Assembly (NCBI RefSeq): GCF_000008665.1
Contig: NC_000917.1
Location: 1,770,001-1,802,000 of the forward strand
Source: Archaeoglobus fulgidus DSM 4304
GTDB lineage: Archaea; Halobacteriota; Archaeoglobi; Archaeoglobales; Archaeoglobaceae
Length of the DNA stretch: 32,000 nt
Reading direction: 5' to 3'
The translations under genes were made by a program, and so were the position numbers. Under the pieces are notes generated by a model. The model had not been told where the DNA came from, made no database searches, and saw only the letters and a program-made list of their open reading frames with translations. Of this stretch, positions 12,016-29,014 are shown piece after piece (position 1 is the stretch's first letter; the number at the start of each line of letters is the position of its first letter).

Positions 12016-12950
12016 AACCTCACCTTTATCACAGCGATGATAAGAGCCTCAACTACACAAAGGACTGAAAGAACGTATATCCAGACGCTGTCCCTGCTGC
12101 ATTCCGCGTAGCCTCCTGCATAGGCGATTCTTGCTGCGTTTGAAATGAGCATTGTGTCGTAAGCCGAATCTCCTGAAGAGAACCTAACCCATGCTATTTT
12201 CGCATTCGTACCCTTAACCAGTTCCTTCGCCATTTCCTCTCCCTTTCCACCCTTCATAAACTCCGGAACGATTATTCCCCTGTAATCTCCGCTTTCGAGC
12301 TTTTTTCTTATTTCAGCAAGCTCTCCTGCGCTTGCGCTACCCGCTCCTTCTGAAATCAGAACTGCTGCAACGCTCAAGTTATAGGTTTTAGCTATGTAGC
12401 AGACTCCGGGTACCATCGCAACGTATTTCCTTCCCGACTCCCCTTCCGAGATCCTTTTGGCCTCTTTTTCCGCCTCCTCGACTCTCTCAACGAAGACTTT
12501 AAAATTTTCTTCAAACTGCGCCTTTTTTCCGGGATACATCTCTGAGAGCTTGTCCTTAACCGCCTTTGCGATCCCTACTGCGTTTTCTGGTAGCATCCAG
12601 TAGCCGTGCGGGTTGCTTTCGAAGCCGGGAAAGTCGTAGAGCTTTGCGTTGTAATCTCTAAAATCGAGGGTGTTGGAGAACTCACTTGCTATTTTTGCCT
12701 CAAAATCCAGCAGTTTTGAGTTTGCAAGCACGATGAGGTCCGCTTTCCTCATTTTCTCAATATCCTCAACCGTTAGGCTGAAGGCGTGAGGATCGGAGCC
12801 TGGGGGGAGCAGGCTGTAAACTTCAAAGCCATCTCCAGCAACCGCCTCAACGATTGGCTTGAAATCGGGCACCGTAACGACTATTGTCGATGCCTCGGCT
12901 GTGCTGAGGAGGAGAAAAAGTGATAAAGCTGCAATAATGACGGGTCTCAC
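12012..12950 (-). CDS. Metal-binding protein of an ABC importer (TroA/ZnuA/PsaA cluster-9 type)
   Basis: Signal/anchor segment VIIAALSLFLLLSTAEAS, and metal-ligand contexts SDPHAF and NPHGYW. GGAGGTGA lies 5 nt upstream of GTG 12950, which overlaps the repressor stop (GTGA). The track start is 12980. Confidence 0.85.
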   Translation of the reverse strand: MRPVIIAALSLFLLLSTAEASTIVVTVPDFKPIVEAVAGDGFEVYSLLPPGSDPHAFSLTVEDIEKMRKADLIVLANSKLLDFEAKIASEFSNTLDFRDYNAKLYDFPGFESNPHGYWMLPENAVGIAKAVKDKLSEMYPGKKAQFEENFKVFVERVEEAEKEAKRISEGESGRKYVAMVPGVCYIAKTYNLSVAAVLISEGAGSASAGELAEIRKKLESGDYRGIIVPEFMKGGKGEEMAKELVKGTNAKIAWVRFSSGDSAYDTMLISNAARIAYAGGYAECSRDSVWIYVLSVLCVVEALIIAVIKVRL

Positions 12951-15814: not shown

Positions 15815-18756
<2,942 letters not shown>

Positions 18757-18770
<14 letters not shown>

Positions 18771-18787
18771 GCATTTGGGGACGAACC
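18757..18787 (-). other. 5' half of the 23S precursor processing stem
   Basis: Complementary to 15784-15814 as described for that feature. Confidence 0.6.
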
Positions 18788-18863
18788 TCTGCACGGCTTC
18801 ACCTGGGCAAACTTGCCCATCAACCCTTCCCCGACGACTTTCATCGCCGGGTGCACGTAATAA

Positions 18864-18935
18864 TGGACTCGGCGGGATTTGAACCCGCGGCCTCCGCCTC
18901 GCAAAGGCGGCGCTCTCCCGCTGAGCTACGAGCCC
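18864..18935 (-). tRNA. tRNA-Ala (anticodon UGC) in the 16S-23S spacer, CCA not encoded
   Basis: Reverse strand: GGGCTCGTAGCTCAGCGGGAGAGCGCCGCCTTTGCGAGGCGGAGGCCGCGGGTTCAAATCCCGCCGAGTCCA. It folds as a 72-nt cloverleaf with a TGC anticodon, the G3:U70 alanine identity pair and a TTCAAAT T-loop. Confidence 0.97.
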
Positions 18936-18937
18936 TT

Positions 18938-18971
18938 GGGCTTGTCAGCATATGAGCCCGGCAGGCGAAGG
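18938..18971 (-). other. 3' half of the 16S precursor processing stem
   Basis: GGGCTTGTCAGCA (18938-18950) is the exact reverse complement of 20527-20539. GCCCGGCAGGCGAAGG (18956-18971) pairs near-perfectly with 20506-20519. Confidence 0.65.
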
Positions 18972-18986
18972 CTGGAATGCACCTTT

Positions 18987-20478
<1,492 letters not shown>

Positions 20479-21302: not shown

Positions 21303-21349
21303 CTCAATCTTTTTATATCCGCCCCTTGGGGCTTAAAAAGGTGGTGTTA

Positions 21350-22111
21350 ATGATATCGGATGGTGACTTTATCAGGCTCAGCTACACAGCAAAGCTGGAG
21401 GATGGAACGATTGTAGATACCACTGACGAGGAGGTGGCAAAGGAGCACGGGATATACAACGAAAATGCGAGGTACGGGGATATATACATCGTGGTGGGCA
21501 AAGGTCACGTTCTGCCCGGACTTGAGGAGGACATAAAGGGCAAAGATGTGGGATACAAGGGCACAGTCGAGATTCCACCTGAGAAGGCCTTTGGCGAGTA
21601 CAACCCCGATTTGAAGGACACCTTCAGCGTCAACAGGTTCAAGGAGAGACCCGAAATCGGGCAGAGAGTGAGAATTGGCGACAGAATCGGAACGGTTGAG
21701 AGGATAGTTGGAAGGAGAGTCATCGTTGACTTCAACCACCCCTTGGCTGGCAAAAAAATCATCTTCGACTACGAAATCAAGGAGAAGCTTGAGAAGCCAG
21801 AGGATAAAATCAAGGCTCTCTTTGTAATTCACACGGGCATTGACGTGAAGGACGTTAAGATTGAAGACGGCAAGGCAATCGTTGAGGTTTCGAGCGACGT
21901 CTACCTGAATCAGGTCTTTCTCATCGGCAGATACAGGGCTGTGAAGGATATCTTTGAAAATACAGAGGTAAAGGAAATTGAAATCGTGGAGAGGTTCGAG
22001 AGGGAGCAGGAGCTTCTGAAGCTTGGAGAGGAAATAAAGGCTGAAGAGGAAGCTGAGAAGGAAGGAGAGAGTGGCGAGGAGGAAGAGCAGACTGAAGAAA
22101 AAGAGGAGTGA
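21350..22111 (+). CDS. Long-type archaeal FKBP peptidyl-prolyl isomerase/chaperone with an IF insert and acidic tail
   Basis: FKBP core: DFIRLSYTAKLEDGTIVDTT...VVGKGHVLPGLEEDIKG...VDFNHPLAGKKIIFDYEI. GGTGGTG lies upstream of ATG 21350; the track start is TTG 21326. Poly-Glu C-terminus. Confidence 0.9.
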   Translation: MISDGDFIRLSYTAKLEDGTIVDTTDEEVAKEHGIYNENARYGDIYIVVGKGHVLPGLEEDIKGKDVGYKGTVEIPPEKAFGEYNPDLKDTFSVNRFKERPEIGQRVRIGDRIGTVERIVGRRVIVDFNHPLAGKKIIFDYEIKEKLEKPEDKIKALFVIHTGIDVKDVKIEDGKAIVEVSSDVYLNQVFLIGRYRAVKDIFENTEVKEIEIVERFEREQELLKLGEEIKAEEEAEKEGESGEEEEQTEEKEE

Positions 22112-22124
22112 ATTTTCATAAAAA

Positions 22125-22130
22125 TTTTTT
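22125..22130 (+). terminator. Oligo-T tract after the FKBP gene
   Basis: T6 located 14 nt after the stop codon. Confidence 0.35.
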
Positions 22131-22317
22131 ATTGGTATATAGTGGCTTCGATTAGTATTTTATAGTTCAAGTTTACATAACTATAGTTATAACAAGAAGC
22201 CTTTCTCTCCAAGATTGGTTTCTTGTTTGGATGAGAGTGGTAGATTGAAGCTTGAATTATGCAAATTGGAACGAATCTGGAAGATTTTGCCGTCTTCCAG
22301 CGGAATAAAATTTAGAG

Positions 22318-24426
22318 GTGAGCTATTTGAGGATTTTAGCTAAAATTTGGATTCCGATGCTTTTCTTAGCATTGCTACATCCGGCAAGCGCTCTGAGTGA
22401 GGAAGAATTTAACAAGGTTGTTGACGCTGTTAGTTCAGTTGGAGTAGAGGTGGACACAAAGGCCTACGGGAATATCGGGTCGATCATTAACGGCCATTAC
22501 AAATATACTGGGCCCATAGCTTATGCAGGGATTACAGCAGATGTGAGTATAAAAATTCAGGATTACACAGAAATTATGAAAATATATGGATACAAAAACT
22601 ACAAAGAAATTCCTGCCAGTGGCTCCAACATCCTAAGGTCTGATCTAAATAGGGAGAAAGCCAGGTGTGATGAATACCAGAGTGGAAGTGATGACATTTT
22701 CAAGCAAATAAGCACAATCGAGGGTACAAGACAGTACTGCTATCACCTATTTGTCGATTGGCAGAACATCGATGGACAAAAATACTGGGAGGAATCACCC
22801 AGGCATGCTTTTTCTCAACTTCTCACAGTCACACCAAGAGCTGAAGTGGCAACTATAATCAATATCCATAATTTTTACACATGTGAGTCTGACTATGTTT
22901 ATACTGTTTGCGACGCTCAAACCAATGATTGCGTCGAAGTGGTTGATTCGGAAAAATACAGCAACTATGTTAAGTGCCTCGAAGACCTGAACCAGAAAAC
23001 AGCAGAATTCACAAAAACACTCAGCCTGAAAATTGAAAGTGCTGTCTTATCAGCCCTTGGTGCGGGTGAGACAGCAACGCCAACAACAACCGCAACTCCA
23101 GCCGCATCCTACACAATCCAGATTCTCTCTCCAAGTCAGGGAGCAACAGTCACATCCTTCTTCAACAAAGGCGGAGTGTGGAGCGACAAAGCGTTCATTC
23201 ACATTGTCAACATCAAGGCAAAGGTGTCGGGAGAGGGGGCGAGCAATCTCTATGCTGTGGTTATTGCACCCGACGGCATCGAGAGGAAGTTTACTATCTA
23301 CAACAACGATCTTTACGCAAGAATTGCTCCGAAGAATATTAACACGGGAAAGGGGGACATCTGGATCAAGCTCTACGGTGAGACCTCCTCAGGCATAACA
23401 CTTCTCGCCACAAAAAGCCTGACTCTCAACTTCATCAGCCCGGAAATTATTGATGGCAAAGATAACGATGGAGATGGCCTTGTTGACTGCAATGACCCAG
23501 ACATAGCAACCAGCGATGAGTGTGTTTACCAGAAAAAGCTCGAATGGGCGGAGAGTGTGATGAAAAGGCACATAGAATACATGGAGTCCCAGCCCGACAG
23601 GTCATTCTTCGAGCCCAAAATTGCCCACATAAAGAACCTCTACGAGAAATACAAGAACGACCCCGATAGAATGGTTGCTGAGATGAACAGATACATGGAC
23701 GCTCAGGTTTACCACAACCAGAAGATTAAGACAATCATCCAAATCTTTCAGGATGACCCGGACAAAGCGGAGAAGGTTGTGGAGATTGCGGAAAAGTATA
23801 AGAACGACCCTTGGCGTAGAAACTACGAGCTAAACAAGTTCGTTTATGAGAACTCCAAATCTGAAGCTGAGAGAGAAGCGGTGAAGAACGCCATTCTGAC
23901 GGGAATAATCAACCCGCCCAAATGGTTTGTTGGGGGGCAGTATGGTTCTGGCGGCGCTCTGGACTGGGCTCAGTTCGTCGCATCAAACTTCGAGCAGGTT
24001 GGAGATACTGTGAAGCTCAAAGGTGCTGAGAAAGTGAAGTTCTTCACAACTCCGGCAAAAATCTACCTCGTCGCTCAGGATGCAAAAGCGCTGATGGATC
24101 ATGCGAGACAGCTCGAAAAGATGAATCTCGACAGCAGAACAAAGGTTTCCATTGTCGTGCTCGACGGTGCAACGAAGATTGGAAAGCTGCTCGACCCGAC
24201 TGGCTACTTCGGAAACATGGCGGATGCGACGGTTGATGCCCTGATCAAGCTCAGAAAGAAAATAGAGGACAGAAACGGCGGATGGATACAAACGGATGTT
24301 GGCGTTTTGCACGAAACCAGCATTCCGGGAATCTACGAGGACTACGAGACTGGAAGGAAGTACAAGCGCATTTCAGGAGGGTGGTTTGAAAAGGACACCT
24401 GGGTGGAGGTGAAGGGCAATGTTTGA
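22318..24426 (+). CDS. Large secreted multidomain protein of unknown family (cluster gene 1)
   Basis: Signal-peptide shape RILAKIWIPMLFLALLHPASA/LSEE. GAGGTGA at 22314-22320 favours in-frame TTG 22327 as the start. Modules: six-Cys N-domain, ETATPTTTATPAAS linker, beta-rich segment, DNDGDGLVDCNDPD loop, and a helical C-half with a duplicated EKYKNDP segment. Confidence 0.8.
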   Translation: MSYLRILAKIWIPMLFLALLHPASALSEEEFNKVVDAVSSVGVEVDTKAYGNIGSIINGHYKYTGPIAYAGITADVSIKIQDYTEIMKIYGYKNYKEIPASGSNILRSDLNREKARCDEYQSGSDDIFKQISTIEGTRQYCYHLFVDWQNIDGQKYWEESPRHAFSQLLTVTPRAEVATIINIHNFYTCESDYVYTVCDAQTNDCVEVVDSEKYSNYVKCLEDLNQKTAEFTKTLSLKIESAVLSALGAGETATPTTTATPAASYTIQILSPSQGATVTSFFNKGGVWSDKAFIHIVNIKAKVSGEGASNLYAVVIAPDGIERKFTIYNNDLYARIAPKNINTGKGDIWIKLYGETSSGITLLATKSLTLNFISPEIIDGKDNDGDGLVDCNDPDIATSDECVYQKKLEWAESVMKRHIEYMESQPDRSFFEPKIAHIKNLYEKYKNDPDRMVAEMNRYMDAQVYHNQKIKTIIQIFQDDPDKAEKVVEIAEKYKNDPWRRNYELNKFVYENSKSEAEREAVKNAILTGIINPPKWFVGGQYGSGGALDWAQFVASNFEQVGDTVKLKGAEKVKFFTTPAKIYLVAQDAKALMDHARQLEKMNLDSRTKVSIVVLDGATKIGKLLDPTGYFGNMADATVDALIKLRKKIEDRNGGWIQTDVGVLHETSIPGIYEDYETGRKYKRISGGWFEKDTWVEVKGNV

Positions 24427-24775
24427 GCCTTTTCTCCTTGCAGTTGAAGGGCAGGAATTTCTGACGGGCTTTCACGTCGAGGGGCCTTTGGCGGGGCTCA
24501 TCATAATCCTGATCGCTCTCCTGCTGCTCTGGATATTCAAAAAGGTGCTCAAGCTCGTGGTTGTGTTGATAGGAGCTGTTGTGGGCTACTTCGTTGGAGA
24601 AGCTGTCGAGCCATCCCTCTCGCTGGTTTTTGCCGCTGGCTTCGCAATCGTTGGGATCTGGGCTATGTCAGGGGACAAGAGCAAAAAGAAGGGAAAGAAG
24701 CAAAGGAGCATTTTGAAGGATGCAGACGACTGGGATGACGACAGCTGGGACGATGAGGGCGATTGGGATGAGTGA
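24419..24775 (+). CDS. Small three-helix membrane protein with a basic-then-acidic Trp-rich tail (cluster gene 2)
   Basis: GGAGGTGA lies 6 nt upstream of ATG 24419, which overlaps gene 1 by 8 nt. Three hydrophobic segments, then KSKKKGKKQRS and DADDWDDDSWDDEGDWDE. Confidence 0.75.
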   Translation: MFEPFLLAVEGQEFLTGFHVEGPLAGLIIILIALLLLWIFKKVLKLVVVLIGAVVGYFVGEAVEPSLSLVFAAGFAIVGIWAMSGDKSKKKGKKQRSILKDADDWDDDSWDDEGDWDE

Positions 24776-24785
24776 GGTGGTTTGA

Positions 24786-25727
24786 ATGGGAAAGCTGAAA
24801 AAGCTGTTCTTCCTGCTGCTGATTCTCTTCGGGCTATTCATAATCATAGACTGGGATGGTAACATACCCGACGACTTCATAGACGACTATCCGGGCTGGG
24901 GAGGAGGAACGAAGCACGGAGATGTTAAGGATACGTGGATTGATGCGAATGGAGACGGGCAGGGGGATGTTTACGTCGGAGATGGATACGCAGAGGTCAC
25001 TCAGCACTTTGTTATCTACGACAGAAACAGCGATGGAAAGTATGATGCGGTGCTCCTCGACCTCGACGAGAACGGGGACTTCGAGACGAGATACCTTGAC
25101 GAGAACTACGATGGCAAGACTGACCTCTGGATTACAACCTTAAACAATAAGAAGAGCTACGCATGGGATTTAGATGCCGACGGAATTCCTGACGTTTACG
25201 ACACCAACGGTGACGGCAGGATTGATGCATGGGACTTGAATGGCGATGGAGTTGTGGATGTCAGGGATGCAGACTTTGATGGAGATGCTGACATGCACGA
25301 CTACGACTTTGACGGAGTTTTTGATGAAGTATGGTCTGCCGGTGGTGACTCATCTGCCAGCTCAGGCACAGCGGGAAGCAATGTAGTCAAGATTACTCTC
25401 TCAACCCCCAACAGAATGTTTCTTGACTTCTCAAGTGGATATGGCGATGAAAACAACTTCGACATAATGCTCGAACCTTGGTGCATCGACAACGCTGCAA
25501 TTAACGGGAATTTTGCAGACATCGGCGTGATGAACCTTGAAGCCGTCACCTCTGCAAACATCCCCTCATCCGGCTACCTCCACGAAGACACCATGGAGAT
25601 AGAGATTGGACACGTTTACATCAACAAGAACTCTGATGGAAGCTACACAGCCTTCACCATCTACAGCCACCAGAAGACTGGCGATTGCGACCACGAAGTC
25701 CTTCTCGGTTACAAGAACCTCGGGTGA
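24786..25727 (+). CDS. Membrane-anchored or secreted protein with nine DxDxDG calcium-type loops (cluster gene 3)
   Basis: GAGGTGG SD. N-terminal anchor LFFLLLILFGLFIII. Loops begin at residues 53, 79, 92, 105, 128, 139, 150, 161 and 172. Beta-rich C-terminal domain. Confidence 0.8.
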   Translation: MGKLKKLFFLLLILFGLFIIIDWDGNIPDDFIDDYPGWGGGTKHGDVKDTWIDANGDGQGDVYVGDGYAEVTQHFVIYDRNSDGKYDAVLLDLDENGDFETRYLDENYDGKTDLWITTLNNKKSYAWDLDADGIPDVYDTNGDGRIDAWDLNGDGVVDVRDADFDGDADMHDYDFDGVFDEVWSAGGDSSASSGTAGSNVVKITLSTPNRMFLDFSSGYGDENNFDIMLEPWCIDNAAINGNFADIGVMNLEAVTSANIPSSGYLHEDTMEIEIGHVYINKNSDGSYTAFTIYSHQKTGDCDHEVLLGYKNLG

Positions 25728-25731
25728 TGAG

Positions 25732-26112
25732 ATGCTGAAAAAGCTCATAATGGGATTTTTCCTCCTCATTCTCCTCGGAATTGCTGGTGTTGCGGTTATG
25801 AACTACTACTACGAAGCCAACTACGATAAGGAGCTTGTAGCCTACGATGAGGGCGTTTTCAACGACAGAGTACACTTCACCTCAGAATTGCTCGGCCCGG
25901 GAACCTACAGAATCATTGCTGGTGGAACCGGGATCGTTGAGGACATAGAAATCATAGACAGGAGCGGAAATGTTGTTGCAAAACATGAGGATACAACCAA
26001 TCTGCTCTACGGCTCCTCCAACTCCTTCGTTGTCCGAGTGAACTACGCCCCGCCAAATCCGGGAGAGGAGTATGAGGCTACCATCGAGATTTACAGGTAT
26101 GTGGAGAAGTGA
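25732..26112 (+). CDS. Small N-terminally anchored protein with a beta-rich ectodomain (cluster gene 4)
   Basis: ATG 25732 lies 4 nt after the gene 3 stop. Begins MLKKLIMGFFLLILLGIAGVAVM. The track ORF (25606) extends upstream into gene 3. Confidence 0.7.
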   Translation: MLKKLIMGFFLLILLGIAGVAVMNYYYEANYDKELVAYDEGVFNDRVHFTSELLGPGTYRIIAGGTGIVEDIEIIDRSGNVVAKHEDTTNLLYGSSNSFVVRVNYAPPNPGEEYEATIEIYRYVEK

Positions 26113-26126
26113 AAGGAGGTGATAAA

Positions 26127-26819
26127 ATGAAAAAACTGATACTGCTGATGCTACTACTGCCCATTTCGCTCATAGGCTGCACTGATGAGGAGAGCAGCGT
26201 TACCGTCGGCCACACGACTGTCTACTACACCAACGTCCCCGACGCAAAGGCAGAGGTTCTGGCTGGTTATCTGCAAGAGGAGTTCGGCTTTACCTCTGAT
26301 ACTGACATTCTGCTCAGCATGAGCGGCAACGAGTACGAGGTGAGGATTCCGAGTTCCTACAGCTCCCCATCTGAAGTTGAAGAGAGCTTCAAGGTCTACT
26401 TTGCTCTTCTTGCCTCAAGGGTTAGTGAGGAGGTTTTCTTCGGCTCTCCTGTTAAGCTCGTCCTTGTCACCCACCAGAACGATGAGCTTTTTGCTGTTAA
26501 AAACCAGTACAGCTTCGAGAAGGCTGGAAGGGTCTTCGTTTACTTCAAAGGTGTTGATAGGGAGCAGGCGTTTAACCTTGCAAACTACCTTGAGAGCCTT
26601 GTCGGAGAGAACTACGACTGGGATGTAATTTTCGAGCAGTCGGAAGGAGTTTATCACGTCGTTCCCTTTGTTGGAATTAACGATGCCAGCGAGCTTACGC
26701 CAGAAATGGAAAACAGCTATCAATCAATGGCCACAGAACTCGAAGACGTTCTCGGAGGAGACGTTGTGGTTCACCTCGTCAACTTTGAGGGCTACGAGGT
26801 TGCAGCCTTTGAGGGCTGA
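26127..26819 (+). CDS. Putative lipoprotein made of two tandem homologous domains (cluster gene 5)
   Basis: GGAGGTGAT lies 3 nt upstream of ATG 26127. MKKLILLMLLLPISLIGC contains a lipobox-like LIGC. The two halves share the pattern V.Y..V....A..LA.YL...D......YEV/YHV..P...E..S......L..V.G..V.L.LV. Confidence 0.75.
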   Translation: MKKLILLMLLLPISLIGCTDEESSVTVGHTTVYYTNVPDAKAEVLAGYLQEEFGFTSDTDILLSMSGNEYEVRIPSSYSSPSEVEESFKVYFALLASRVSEEVFFGSPVKLVLVTHQNDELFAVKNQYSFEKAGRVFVYFKGVDREQAFNLANYLESLVGENYDWDVIFEQSEGVYHVVPFVGINDASELTPEMENSYQSMATELEDVLGGDVVVHLVNFEGYEVAAFEG

Positions 26820-26849
26820 GCGTTTGCAAACAAAAGTTGGCCCTTAAAA

Positions 26850-26856
26850 TTTTTTT
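26850..26856 (+). terminator. Oligo-T tract ending the five-gene cluster
   Basis: T7 located 31 nt after stop 26819. It is followed by a TTTATAT box (26869-26875) for the NSS gene. Confidence 0.4.
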
Positions 26857-26893
26857 AGTAAAACAAAGTTTATATGTCAGGATAGTCTAAGCA

Positions 26894-28369
26894 GTGGCCA
26901 TGGAGAGGGAAAACTGGGCTACAAGAGCCGGTTTCGTTCTCGCCGCCATTGGCTCGGCCATAGGACTCGGAAACATCTGGAGATTCGGCTATCTTGTTTA
27001 CAAAAACGGTGGAGGGGCGTTTCTCATCCCCTACTTCGTTGCACTCTTTGTGGCGGGAATAAGCCTGATGATTCTGGAGTTTGCCATCGGCCACAGGTTC
27101 AGGGGGAGCGCTCCTGCATCAATGAGGAAGCTTGGAGGCAGAGGCTTCGAGTGGATTGGCTGGTGGGCGGTCACAGGAGGCTTGATAATCACAATGTACT
27201 ACACGGTAGTCATTGGATGGGCCATAGTTTACTTCACAAAGTCATTGACGCTGGCGTGGGGAGAGGATACGGGAGGATACTTCTTCGGCACGGTTCTGCA
27301 GCTCTCCGACAATCCATGGGATTTCGGCGGGTTTGCAACCGAAGTTCTGATTGCTACAATCATTGTGTGGGCGCTGAACTGGCTTGTCGACTTCAGGGGC
27401 ATCAGGAAGGGAATTGAGAAGGCCAACCTTTTGCTGATGCCGCTTCTCTGGCTTCTCGCCGTAATCCTTGTCATCAGAGCGGTAACTCTGCCGGGAGCGA
27501 TGGAGGGGATAGAGTGGTATCTGAAGCCCGACTTCAGCAAGCTCGGCGATTACAACATCTGGCTTGCCGCCTTCGGGCAGATATTCTTCACGCTCAGCCT
27601 CGGAATGGGCATAATGATAGCCTACGCCAGCTATCTGCCTGAAAAGAGCGATATAGCAAACAACGCCTTCATAGTCAGCCTTGCCAACTGCGCCTTCAGC
27701 TTCCTTGTCGGCTTTGCTGTCTTCGGCACTCTCGGATACATGGCCTACGCCACTCAATCGGATATAAGCGACGTGGTAGCGCAGTCGGTCGGTCTGGCTT
27801 TCGTGGTGTTTCCGAAGGCTCTGAACATGCTGCCAGCACTGAAGGTGTTCACAGCAGCGGTATTCTTCCTCGCACTGGTCGTTGCAGGGCTTTCGTCCTC
27901 CATATCACTCGTTGAGGCCGTCAGCTCGGCACTGATGGACAAGTTCGGCATGGAGAGGAGAAAGGCCGTGAACATCGTCGTTTTAGTTGGATTTCTCGGA
28001 AGCATCGTCTACACAACGAAGGCGGGCCTTTACTGGCTCGACGTCGTTGACCACTTCATCAACTACTACGGCCTTGTTCTGGTGGGGCTGCTGGAGGTCA
28101 TAGCCGCAGCGTGGCTCTTTGATTTGACAGTGCTGAAGAACCACATCAACTCTGTTTCGGAGATAAAGGTCGGTATGTGGTGGGATTTGGCAGTAAAGTT
28201 TGCAACACCGCTCATACTGGCAGTGCTGCTGATTCTCGACATCAGAGGAAACCTCACGGAGAACTACGGCGGCTATCCGACGGAAGTGCTGCTGACGGGC
28301 CTTTCTATTATAGTTCTGGGCATGATTGTGGCAGCAATACTCTCATGGAGGGATAAAAATGTCAGCTGA
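26894..28369 (+). CDS. Neurotransmitter:sodium symporter (NSS/SNF, LeuT-like) family transporter
   Basis: NWATRAGFVLAAIGSAIGLGNIWRFGYL is the hallmark NSS TM1 motif; about 12 TM helices. The start is either GTG 26894 or ATG 26900. There is no SD, and a TATA box sits 22-28 nt upstream, so the transcript is probably leaderless. Confidence 0.95.
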   Translation: MAMERENWATRAGFVLAAIGSAIGLGNIWRFGYLVYKNGGGAFLIPYFVALFVAGISLMILEFAIGHRFRGSAPASMRKLGGRGFEWIGWWAVTGGLIITMYYTVVIGWAIVYFTKSLTLAWGEDTGGYFFGTVLQLSDNPWDFGGFATEVLIATIIVWALNWLVDFRGIRKGIEKANLLLMPLLWLLAVILVIRAVTLPGAMEGIEWYLKPDFSKLGDYNIWLAAFGQIFFTLSLGMGIMIAYASYLPEKSDIANNAFIVSLANCAFSFLVGFAVFGTLGYMAYATQSDISDVVAQSVGLAFVVFPKALNMLPALKVFTAAVFFLALVVAGLSSSISLVEAVSSALMDKFGMERRKAVNIVVLVGFLGSIVYTTKAGLYWLDVVDHFINYYGLVLVGLLEVIAAAWLFDLTVLKNHINSVSEIKVGMWWDLAVKFATPLILAVLLILDIRGNLTENYGGYPTEVLLTGLSIIVLGMIVAAILSWRDKNVS

Positions 28370-28464: not shown

Positions 28465-28827
28465 AAACAAGCTGGAGCTTCAGCCCGAATTTTCGGAAAA
28501 TCTCGAAGTCAAAGTCCCTCGTTATCAGAATTTTGTCGTTTGCTAAGGCAGAAGATGCAATCAGCAGGTCTTTTACCTTTGGAACTCTGCCCCTTTTTTA
28601 AGTTCTCTGAAAATTTTTCCTGCAAGCTTTGCAGAACTTTCTTCAAAATTCAGCTTAGGTATTTTTTCAAGAAAAATTTCTTCCCTCTCTTTTAAACTTC
28701 CACACTGGAGTTCGAAAAGAGTTATGACAGAAATGCCATAAACTGTATCTCCGTTCAACTTTTCAAGCAATCCTTTATCTCCTTTAAACAAATCAATGAT
28801 TACACAAGGATTGCATCCATTCTTCAA
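28463..28827 (-). pseudogene. vapC: PIN-domain VapC toxin interrupted by a frameshift at an A6 run
   Basis: Frame 1 (track ORF 28573..28827) reads ..[10 protein letters not shown]...ISVITLFEL..G...LKKGAEFQR*. The -1 frame continues KRGRVPKVKDLLIASSALANDKILITRDFDFE..* to 28463. Together they make a 121-aa PIN domain, with the break at A6G4 (plus strand 28590-28599). Confidence 0.65.
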
Positions 28828-29014
28828 CCTCCTTCATCTCCCTTTTTAACTTTTCAACCTCCTCCTCGCTCCTCGTCCCGAATGCAACCATTAAAAGGTC
28901 AAAATTTCCTTCCTTTTTTACCAACTCCCTGATGACTTCAGAGAAGCTCCTTTTTCCTTTAATTTTAACCAGCATCTCATACACATCATCGGAAATGCTA
29001 ATCGTTTTTGTCAT
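28793..29014 (-). CDS. vapB: VapB-type antitoxin (archaeal [12 protein letters not shown].. family)
   Basis: 73 aa. The N-terminus [32 protein letters not shown] matches the common archaeal VapB-like antitoxin pattern. It overlaps the vapC start by 35 nt. A/T box about 20 nt upstream. Confidence 0.7.

Follow-up and report, generated by a model that had tools for sequence, protein, structure and literature searches.

We analysed a 32,000-nucleotide window of the Archaeoglobus fulgidus chromosome (the whole stretch of DNA studied here), in which five consecutive open reading frames (ORFs), O1 to O5, are AF1990–AF1994 (exact look-ups AF_1990 to AF_1994). The five ORFs are real genes, backed by orthologues and by published microarray transcripts, and they form one operon of co-oriented envelope genes coupled via Shine-Dalgarno (SD) sites that overlap the preceding stop codons. 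Judged from sequence, this block is an undescribed gene module of the general kind "secreted surface protein plus membrane-tethered partners", made of families without a characterised member. Its most informative feature is a swappable N-terminal head on the secreted protein O1, which had been missed in a preliminary description of this DNA; the priority given there to the block was justified, and the finding is real. We tentatively read the block as a surface-display complex, tethered to the membrane and stabilised by calcium, whose variable head would serve in recognition or adhesion, a reading to which we give somewhat less than an even chance, complex formation and calcium dependence being predicted from DxDxDG motifs and gene linkage.

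Four of the five products are annotated as "hypothetical", the exception being AF1992 ("calcium-binding protein, putative"), and the five genes have stood without functional annotation since the 1997 genome. O1 is 100% identical to an A. fulgidus hypothetical protein encoded on a 2,178,400-bp chromosome, and AF1990–AF1994 occur in strains DSM 4304 and DSM 8774 as well as in environmental assemblies. The preliminary description had reported same-strand ORFs of 702, 118, 313, 126 and 230 amino acids with junctions of −8, +10, +4 and +14 nucleotides (nt) and an SD match before each of the four internal starts. Coordinates, lengths and junctions were verified in the sequence, and the SD matches against the 3' end of the 16S ribosomal RNA (rRNA) encoded within the window, GGATCACCTCC (18988–18998, minus strand), from which the SD consensus GGAGGTGATCC follows. 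GAGGTG occurs 36 times in the window where 16.8 ± 4.1 copies are expected; between 22000 and 27000, four of the six plus-strand copies lie 4–6 nt upstream of (5–7 nt before) start codons of the block.

The coupling between O1 and the next gene is itself conserved. The last conserved O1 codons, Val-Glu-Val (GTGGAGGTG), double as the SD site of the following gene (junctions 24396–24421 in the window, 12497–12547 in the Thermococcaceae locus L001, and others), and the identical nucleotide arrangement is found at all five aligned Thermococcaceae O1–O3 junctions and at the A. fulgidus O1–O2 junction. In most Thermococcaceae loci it is the O3 homologue that shares 8 nt with O1, and the Micrarchaeota O1–O3 junction is a 4-nt overlap without a GGAGGTG sequence. 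In A. fulgidus, O2 has taken the ancestral O1 coupling site, O3 using an SD site of its own further downstream.

Published microarray data show how the operon is expressed. On lactate/sulfate, transcript levels relative to the genome mean are 1.2 for AF1990, 1.4 for AF1991, 0.9 for AF1992, 0.5 for AF1993 and 0.2 for AF1994 (Hocking et al. 2014, PMC3949148, Table S3); all five transcripts drop about two- to three-fold in late-log cells, with no significant response to electron donor or acceptor (PMC3949148). From the same data (PMC3949148) we find that the levels of AF1990–93 correlate with r 0.76–0.99 over five conditions, so that co-expression is borne out for these four transcripts, and that these four reach only r 0–0.4 with the downstream AF1995, AF1990 and AF1991 being uncorrelated with it. 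The array data, which comprise only five data points, are consistent with one transcript with 5'-to-3' decay. In the literature searched, AF1990–AF1994 are mentioned in no paper text, this one microarray supplement contains them, a second transcriptome supplement holds no entries for them, and no transcription-start-site data for A. fulgidus were found.

Gene pairing and head variation across archaea

Homologues of O1 are few. A search of 5.8 billion proteins returned only about ten relatives, and an exhaustive profile search of 1.84 billion representatives gave 17 clusters at E below 1e-30, its further matches being confined to a short acidic repeat; these numbers indicate a very rare family. 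The homologues belong to Thermococcaceae and to a few remote metagenomic or Micrarchaeota proteins; a metagenome scan found close relatives only, and among Archaeoglobales and other Archaeoglobi none was found outside A. fulgidus. Synteny extends beyond this species: in Thermococcaceae, four of the five ORFs have orthologues in kept order, O1-O3-O4-O5 being preserved in about 12 loci (T. pacificus, T. indicus, Thermococcus sp. Bubb.Bath and several metagenome-assembled genomes, MAGs). Identity to A. fulgidus amounts there to 50–54% over about 450 residues for O1, about 52% over the calcium region for O3, 38–51% for O4 and 27–36% for O5. The Thermococcus copies of the block are invariably flanked by btpA and a phosphoglucomutase gene. 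In a neighbour-joining tree A. fulgidus branches as sister to the Thermococcaceae clade, which does not fix the direction of any transfer. Nine Thermococcus loci also contain, at varying positions, a soluble protein of about 150 residues with weak similarity to bacterial PH domains (bPH-like; best E 0.019; for example L001 15063–15521, L002 15167–15613, L006 11563–12012 and L008 12355–12819), which has no counterpart in the A. fulgidus window.

The homologues of O1 and O3 are adjacent wherever the locus extends far enough for the downstream gene to be seen, and they overlap in most loci. The pair is also kept in the five remote O1 loci examined, one in a Candidatus Micrarchaeota MAG and four on unassigned metagenome contigs. 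There, the O1 proteins consist of a signal peptide, Cys-rich repeats, the acidic repeat and a conserved module of about 330 residues, and in all five a lipoprotein of 157+ to 212 residues with the lipobox G-C-C comes within 0–25 nt. This partner is the O3-type calcium repeat alone, 43–50% identical to O3. Since the remote loci keep the pair and nothing else of the block, neither O4 nor O5 being present, the irreducible core is the O1 module plus the O3 calcium repeat. Pairwise-identity matrices within Thermococcaceae correlate for O1 with O3 (r 0.70) and for O4 with O5 (r 0.81) and do not for O1 with O4 (−0.04) or O1 with O5 (0.17), which suggests that O1/O3 and O4/O5 are two separately recombining sub-modules, although plain linkage would account for the pattern as well. 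O2 is an accessory, since it is missing from most Thermococcaceae loci and is found elsewhere in only one lineage, at a different position. The five-gene unit of the preliminary description hence stands as a genuine translationally coupled envelope set, but it is not indivisible, comprising an O1/O3 core, a second O4/O5 block and the accessory O2.

It might be argued that no dedicated complex exists and that five neighbouring exported proteins merely share an operon because this makes their expression economical: O2 can be dispensed with, the evolution of O4/O5 is independent of that of O1/O3, and accessory genes sit between the two sub-modules in some genomes. Yet the gene order of the other four is kept in these about 12 loci across two archaeal orders, the very nucleotides of the coupling site between O1 and the next gene are conserved within Thermococcaceae and A. 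fulgidus, O1 and O3 always occur together, also in the remote lineages, and none of the block genes was found outside this context. We thus consider this explanation very improbable.

When the O1 homologues were split into an N-terminal part and the C-terminal 440 residues and these were compared separately, three pairs emerged that are near-identical in the C-terminal 440 residues and carry heads without detectable similarity (L002/P0007, 97%; L008/P0031, 94%; P0003/T. pacificus, 89%). Across the family there are at least five unrelated head types. The A. fulgidus head is 23–25% identical over about 255 residues to that of one Thermococcaceae MAG lineage, and the type found in P0003 and P0031 is 57–59% identical to the N-terminus of an accessory secreted protein of T. 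indicus. The latter belongs to a second gene pair, which lies inside the block of T. indicus and Thermococcus sp. Bubb.Bath (L005 10048–12179; L006 9372–11524) and consists of a secreted protein of 463 or 470 residues, sharing its head type with some O1 proteins, followed by its own anchored partner of 247 residues; the pair has no family match. Altogether, this indicates that the O1 head is a recombining cassette. A conserved base with a recombining distal domain is the hallmark of a part that is exposed and subject to diversifying selection. The head-coding stretch of O1 in A. fulgidus (window 22001–23000) has a GC content of 0.40, against 0.48–0.51 in the rest of the block, which is compatible with a foreign or recombinant origin of the head cassette.

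Such a pattern also invites a different explanation, namely that the O1 module is a secreted toxin (an archaeocin) acting on the envelopes of competitors, with the heads serving in receptor binding or delivery as in colicins and pyocins, the outward-tethered O3 conferring immunity, and O4/O5 aiding release or protection. A tight pair of exoprotein and tethered partner, overlapping in most loci and kept across distant archaea, would suit it, and so would the heterogeneous N-termini (Cys-rich repeats or different heads) on one conserved C-terminal domain, the sporadic distribution with A. fulgidus alone among the Archaeoglobi, the second "head plus different C-terminus" protein with its own anchored partner in T. 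indicus and Bubb.Bath, and minimal homologues that consist mostly of the module. However, the polarity is opposite to that of polymorphic toxins, the C-terminus being invariant here and the N-terminus variable. The O1 module and O3 are under strong purifying selection (61–67% between Archaeoglobus and Thermococcaceae), with no sign of an arms race, the Thermococcus position between btpA and phosphoglucomutase is fixed and not a variable island, and expression is constitutive, at mean level, in pure culture. Furthermore, no toxin, immunity, defence or viral family was matched, O1 has no hydrophobic hairpin, and no orphan O3 genes were seen. A toxin, the main rival to our reading, thus seems unlikely to us.

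Predicted architecture of the five proteins

As claimed in the preliminary description, every product is an exported protein, a membrane protein or a lipoprotein: O1 has a signal peptide, O2 transmembrane segments, O3 and O4 N-terminal anchors and O5 a lipobox. The further claim that none belongs to a recognisable family holds in so far as no curated family explains the products (Pfam, NCBIfam, PHROGs, PADLOC, PDB), but AF1994 does carry PF27311. Profile searches gave no confident match to unrelated known families. Specifically, Pfam and NCBIfam gave no significant match for the five proteins and nine accessory or orthologous proteins, nor for ten O1 homologues with different heads, so that no head type is in Pfam. 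PDB searches with single sequences and with family profiles (O1, O3, O4, O5 and the bPH-like protein) likewise returned nothing significant, the best matches being the teneurin Cys-rich domain, to the short acidic repeat of O1, and a dockerin.

O1, described earlier as a Cys-containing multidomain secreted protein, indeed combines a signal peptide (…HPASA/LSEE) with Cys-bearing domains (Table 1). By hydrophobicity analysis the signal peptide is its sole hydrophobic segment, and no hydrophobic segment was found at the C-terminus, hence the protein has no anchor of its own; a pore-forming hairpin is likewise excluded, since only the signal peptide reaches a Kyte-Doolittle value of 1.6. Foldseek with the full O1 model, which has a mean predicted local distance difference test score (pLDDT) of 49 in AlphaFold2 (AF2), returned only generic E-set or immunoglobulin (Ig)-like domains, one of them the CARDB domain of P. 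furiosus PF1109. The acidic repeat matches NCBIfam NF033662 in a single copy (E 1.7e-4, 21.3 bits, cut-off 41) and, by phmmer against the PDB, a teneurin Cys-rich domain (E 2e-3); residues 379–402 align to both. D379–D395 are invariant in the family, and of the four Cys present in remote homologues A. fulgidus keeps two (Cys391 and Cys402). We thus regard residues 379–401 as a probable degenerate acidic disulfide repeat of the teneurin-like calcium type.

The C-terminal module, by which the exhaustive profile search delimits the family, is 61–67% identical to its Thermococcaceae counterparts and 34–45% to the remote homologues, and it is marked by the motifs PPKW-GGxYxSGG and VLDGATKIGKxLDPTGYFGNMADAT. 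Modelled from a 17-sequence alignment, it reaches a pLDDT of 61, with a moderately confident six-helix bundle at residues ~400–530 (pLDDT 70–92), and Foldseek against PDB and BFVD gave no match with E below 0.04. The module could, in principle, be a new extracellular catalytic or ligand-binding domain, acting for example on the S-layer, glycans or polymers, with heads that bind the substrate, O3 as a calcium-dependent cofactor or chaperone and O4/O5 as accessory binders. Polar residues that are invariant even in remote homologues (module D214, K235, K246, K249, D252, T254, Y256 and D262) would be in keeping with such an activity, as would the resemblance of the O1 Ig-like domain to those attached to chitinases and carbohydrate-binding modules, and a modularity of the heads that is like carbohydrate-binding-module shuffling. 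Still, no catalytic family or fold was matched, the GGxYxSGG motif is lost in P0034, and no metabolic or transporter genes are consistently linked. In addition, about 17 clusters at E below 1e-30 in 1.84e9 representatives are far too rare for a general envelope role. An enzymatic or ligand-binding function is accordingly, in our view, quite improbable.

O3 starts with a membrane anchor (residues 1–28), followed by the calcium-loop region (~40–185), then a Ser/Gly linker and, at the C-terminus, a beta-rich domain in which Cys233 and Cys301 are conserved. The many calcium-type loops noted earlier amount to nine of the DxDxDGxxD type with invariant Asp and Gly positions; four of them are complete, overlapping DxDxDGxxDxxD units with an 11-residue period. 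Tandem loops of this form follow a thrombospondin type-3-like pattern; the Pfam scan listed no TSP_3 match for O3, whose repeats are without Cys. The O3 family profile found in the PDB as its best match a dockerin of Ruminococcus flavefaciens (5lxv_B, E 0.018, not significant), EF-hand proteins likewise falling short. We rejected a type I or II dockerin, for which there is no Pfam match and for whose helix the loop spacing of 11–13 residues leaves no room, and an EF-hand, PF13405 and PF13202 reaching 12.5 and 12.2 bits where 25 and 25.9 are required. The Micrarchaeota O3 homologue approaches the FG-GAP repeat (PF13517; 22.6 bits against a cut-off of 26.9, E 1.6e-4), to which A. fulgidus O3 has no match.

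O4 and O5 agree with what had been described. In O4, hydrophobicity analysis locates an N-terminal anchor, which precedes a beta-rich ectodomain of about 100 residues; its orthologues are 31–51% identical, and its family matches are all below threshold (BasC, E 0.022; Gmad2, E 0.073). A type IV pilin-like or Bas identity was rejected: the N-terminus MLKKLIMGFFLL lacks a class III signal (Lys/Arg at −2, Gly/Ala at −1), BasC scores 14.7 bits against a cut-off of 260, and no ATPase is encoded in any examined locus. O5 is a predicted lipoprotein with the lipobox LIGC in LLLPISLIGC, of which Gly17 and Cys18 are invariant among 10 orthologues, and it consists of two copies of an alpha/beta domain of about 100 residues (hhalign of the halves: probability 98.4%, E 1e-14). 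Pfam PF27311 (AF_1994_N), a family that carries no function, takes its name from O5; PF27311.1 is annotated on P0011, which is 100% identical to O5, and on the Thermococcus orthologues. Comparisons by hhalign of O4 with the C-terminal domain of O3, and of the 247-residue accessory protein with O4 or O5, detected similarity only in the signal or anchor segments.

The small membrane protein O2 has three hydrophobic segments, a Lys-rich stretch and the charged Trp tail reported earlier, an acidic Trp-rich C-terminus DADDWDDDSWDDEGDWDE that is probably cytoplasmic by the positive-inside rule. Its sole homologues are a 150-residue protein upstream of O1 in L004/L018 (BLASTP E 3e-7; phmmer 8e-13), with a signal peptide and a matching acidic Trp tail, and a 43-residue remnant in T. 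indicus; in the remaining Thermococcaceae loci O2 is absent.

Conserved Cys residues in the ectodomains count for an extracytoplasmic location. N-X-S/T glycosylation sequons are missing from the five A. fulgidus proteins (0 in 1489 residues; composition shuffles expect 8.4 ± 2.6, and zero occurred in none of 2000), and the T. pacificus orthologues have 9, 8, 1 and 1. As 4 sequons in 1686 residues are all that five neighbouring proteins of the window contain, of which four are cytoplasmic enzymes and the fifth is a membrane transporter, this depletion may in part be genome-wide.

A putative surface-display complex

As the most economical model, we propose that O1, secreted and anchorless, would be held at the cell surface via its conserved C-terminal module, which may dock on the array of acidic loops in O3 once calcium has neutralised and rigidified it. 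O3 would serve as the tether, with a transmembrane anchor in A. fulgidus and a lipid anchor in the remote relatives. The anchored beta domain of O4 and the lipoprotein O5 could form a second, separately inherited sub-module of the base, and O2, with its acidic Trp tail in the cytoplasm, might be a transmembrane accessory that the assembly can do without. In O1, the Ig-like domain, calcium/disulfide repeat and helical bundle would then make up a stalk that presents the swappable head outward. The head may recognise or adhere to surfaces, other cells or further partners, and recombination would diversify it.

Several points weigh against this proposal. Physical interaction, calcium binding and surface location are all predictions from sequence, and the resemblance of O3 to dockerin is statistically insignificant (E 0.018). 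The most conserved segment of the O1 module stays unmodelled by AF2 (pLDDT below 50), and the docking role is hence structurally unsupported. In the minimal remote homologues, of 413–418 residues, the C-terminal module is most of the protein, which suggests that it is the functional part and not merely an anchor. The correlation of the O1 and O3 matrices could merely reflect physical linkage. Finally, an exported protein with a small anchored partner would fit a toxin–immunity pair equally well.

The proposal can be extended to a polymorphic archaeal surface-recognition system, in which a calcium-dependent base (O3 with O4/O5) would carry recombining heads that, in Thermococcales, choose cells, surfaces or viruses, as an analogue of TraA-like kin recognition or of adhesins. 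The O1 module and the calcium-repeat lipoprotein would then be an ancient docking pair shared with DPANN archaea, where it might serve host attachment. We regard this extended version as doubtful. What probability remains after these readings goes to functions outside them.

In the proposed surface-display complex, a calcium-loaded DxDxDG module would hold a secreted subunit on a cell-bound partner, much as in cohesin–dockerin pairs. Unlike there, the loops are in the anchored O3 and not in the secreted subunit, no Pfam dockerin or cohesin is matched, the nine O3 loops with their spacing of 11–13 residues leave no room for F-hand helices, and the O1 module is helical plus alpha/beta and not a beta-sandwich. 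Bona fide cohesin and dockerin genes exist elsewhere in the A. fulgidus genome. The arrangement also recalls myxobacterial TraA/TraB, where a polymorphic N-terminal recognition domain sits on a Cys-rich/repeat stalk, a membrane-associated partner is encoded alongside, and specificity is set by swapping the variable domain. This likeness is conceptual only: no sequence relationship is known, and the hosts of TraA/TraB are bacteria with an outer membrane.

With polymorphic toxins or colicin-like systems the block shares a secreted multidomain protein followed by a small partner gene, shuffled modules and a sporadic taxonomic distribution; membership was rejected on the reversed polarity, the lack of a match to any toxin or immunity family, and the identity of the O1 partner as a conserved calcium-repeat protein. 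BasC (NCBIfam NF053671) aligns weakly over nearly the full length of O4 (E 0.022, 14.7 bits), and each is a small envelope protein of archaea that has a hydrophobic segment at its N-terminus, but no ATPase or membrane protein of the BasE/F type lies near O4.

A further system to compare is VARTIG, a Thermococcales operon in which a large secreted Ig protein comes first, followed by small membrane proteins, and which contains a hypervariable region made by recombination (PMC8416519). Its function is unknown, inter-microbial conflict or self/non-self recognition having been proposed (Makarova et al. 2021, PMC8416519); it is built on arCOG07710/14200, in which about five Ig domains accompany a conserved N-terminal region bearing a GN motif, and is found in recently acquired islands of Thermococcales only, the paper mentioning neither calcium nor Archaeoglobus (PMC8416519). 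Both operons are headed by a secreted Ig-domain protein and have a recombining variable region. In contrast to VARTIG, O1 has one Ig-like domain, its variable part is the N-terminus and not the C-terminus, and the block sits at a fixed locus and occurs also in Archaeoglobus and Micrarchaeota. We hence rejected VARTIG membership on Ig count, variable end and locus type, the block being set apart from arCOG07710 by the description of the latter.

Although distant archaea conserve this rare module and experiments on it are feasible, nothing so far shows an unusual mechanism. Little is understood of the ways in which archaea recognise surfaces, hosts and one another and attach to them, and very few envelope complexes have been characterised in hyperthermophiles or DPANN. 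The block supplies a defined pair, a secreted module and a calcium-repeat partner, that has no detectable relatives among known folds, and its natural head swapping marks the exposed, selected part of the assembly. As a docking device, the pair would be a new thermostable system for protein–protein anchoring and a handle on cell–cell interaction in Thermococcales and Micrarchaeota; as a toxin–immunity pair, it would represent a new class of archaeocin. Either outcome would assign a function to five hypothetical genes.

Features and surroundings of the locus

The features of the block are collected in Table 1.

Table 1. Positions of genes, O1 domains and expression signals of the AF1990–AF1994 block within the window
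Feature	Position	Strand	Remarks
O1 (AF1990)	22318–24426	+	702 aa from GTG; 699 aa from TTG 22327
O2 (AF1991)	24419–24775	+	118 aa
O3 (AF1992)	24786–25727	+	313 aa
O4 (AF1993)	25732–26112	+	126 aa
O5 (AF1994)	26127–26819	+	230 aa
O1 variable head and Thr/Pro-rich linker	22393..23067	+	Head residues ~26–250, six Cys; linker ~250–265; AF2 pLDDT below 50
O1 Ig-like beta-sandwich	23110..23442	+	Residues ~265–375; AF2 pLDDT 70–87
O1 acidic DxDxDG/disulfide repeat	23443..23526	+	Residues 376–403; Cys391, Cys402
O1 conserved C-terminal module	23527..24423	+	Helical bundle ~404–530 and alpha/beta region 531–702
T-tract ending the upstream FKBP gene	22125–22130	+	
Intergenic promoter and 5' leader region of O1	22112..22326	+	Putative promoter
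TATA-like TTTATAG	22159–22165	+	
Leader inverted repeat AACAAGAAGCCTTTCT / AGATTGGTTTCTTGTT	22191–22206 / 22212–22227	+	Imperfect, 81% complementary, 5-nt loop
SD of O1, GAGGTGA	22315–22321	+	TTG 22327 starts 6 nt past GAGGTGA
Conserved coupling site	24405..24421	+	O1 codons VEV (GTGGAGGTG) are the SD for the ATG overlapping the O1 stop
SD of O2, GGAGGTGA	24405–24412	+	
SD of O3, GAGGTGG	24774–24780	+	
SD of O4, GGTGATGA	25723–25730	+	
SD of O5, GGAGGTGAT	26115–26123	+	
Oligo-T tract	26850–26856	+	31 nt past the O5 stop; likely archaeal terminator

The start of O1 is ambiguous, public annotations using GTG 22318 (702 residues), TTG 22327 (699 residues, NCBI) or ATG 22357 (689 residues, JGI). 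In the environmental A. fulgidus contig L014 (LZQN01000126.1) the position of TTG 22327 reads TCG. This contig is 99.5% identical to window positions 22100–26900 and lacks a single base at five places, four of which lie in short homopolymers; these deletions, which break O1 and O3 into fragments, are probably sequencing errors. Eleven of its 19 substitutions cluster in a 190-nt region upstream of O1. The region upstream of O1 contains, besides the elements of Table 1, a palindrome, TAACTATAGTTA, at about 22178–22189. Both T-tracts said to bound the block are present at the positions of Table 1, and scans for promoters, terminators and tandem repeats were uninformative.

Upstream of the block lie the rRNA operon, a CYTH gene and an FKBP gene, and downstream an SNF-type symporter (AF1995) and then a VapBC pair. 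Housekeeping flanks and the lack of an integrase rule out an integrated element or provirus. As to mobile or viral cargo and defence systems, PHROGs matched the block products only at E above 1e-3 and PADLOC not at all, and neither the O1 nor the O3 profile found a match in IMG/VR. Two genes past the block, on the minus strand, the VapB/VapC-type toxin–antitoxin pair (AF1996/AF1997) occupies 28573–29014; its VapC ORF has no Pfam match at E 1e-3, and array data show essentially zero expression.

Rfam found in the whole window the rRNA operon and one tRNA and nothing else. The operon is complete (15815–20478, minus strand; 16S, spacer tRNA at 18864–18935, 23S) and explains the rise of the GC content to 0.61–0.64. 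An FKBP26-type gene (21326–22111) adjoins O1 upstream in A. fulgidus, and in the remote locus L022 a gene of the same type (1155–1715) lies about 1.5 kb from the O1 homologue on the opposite strand; as the Thermococcus loci are without an FKBP gene, this proximity is probably a coincidence.

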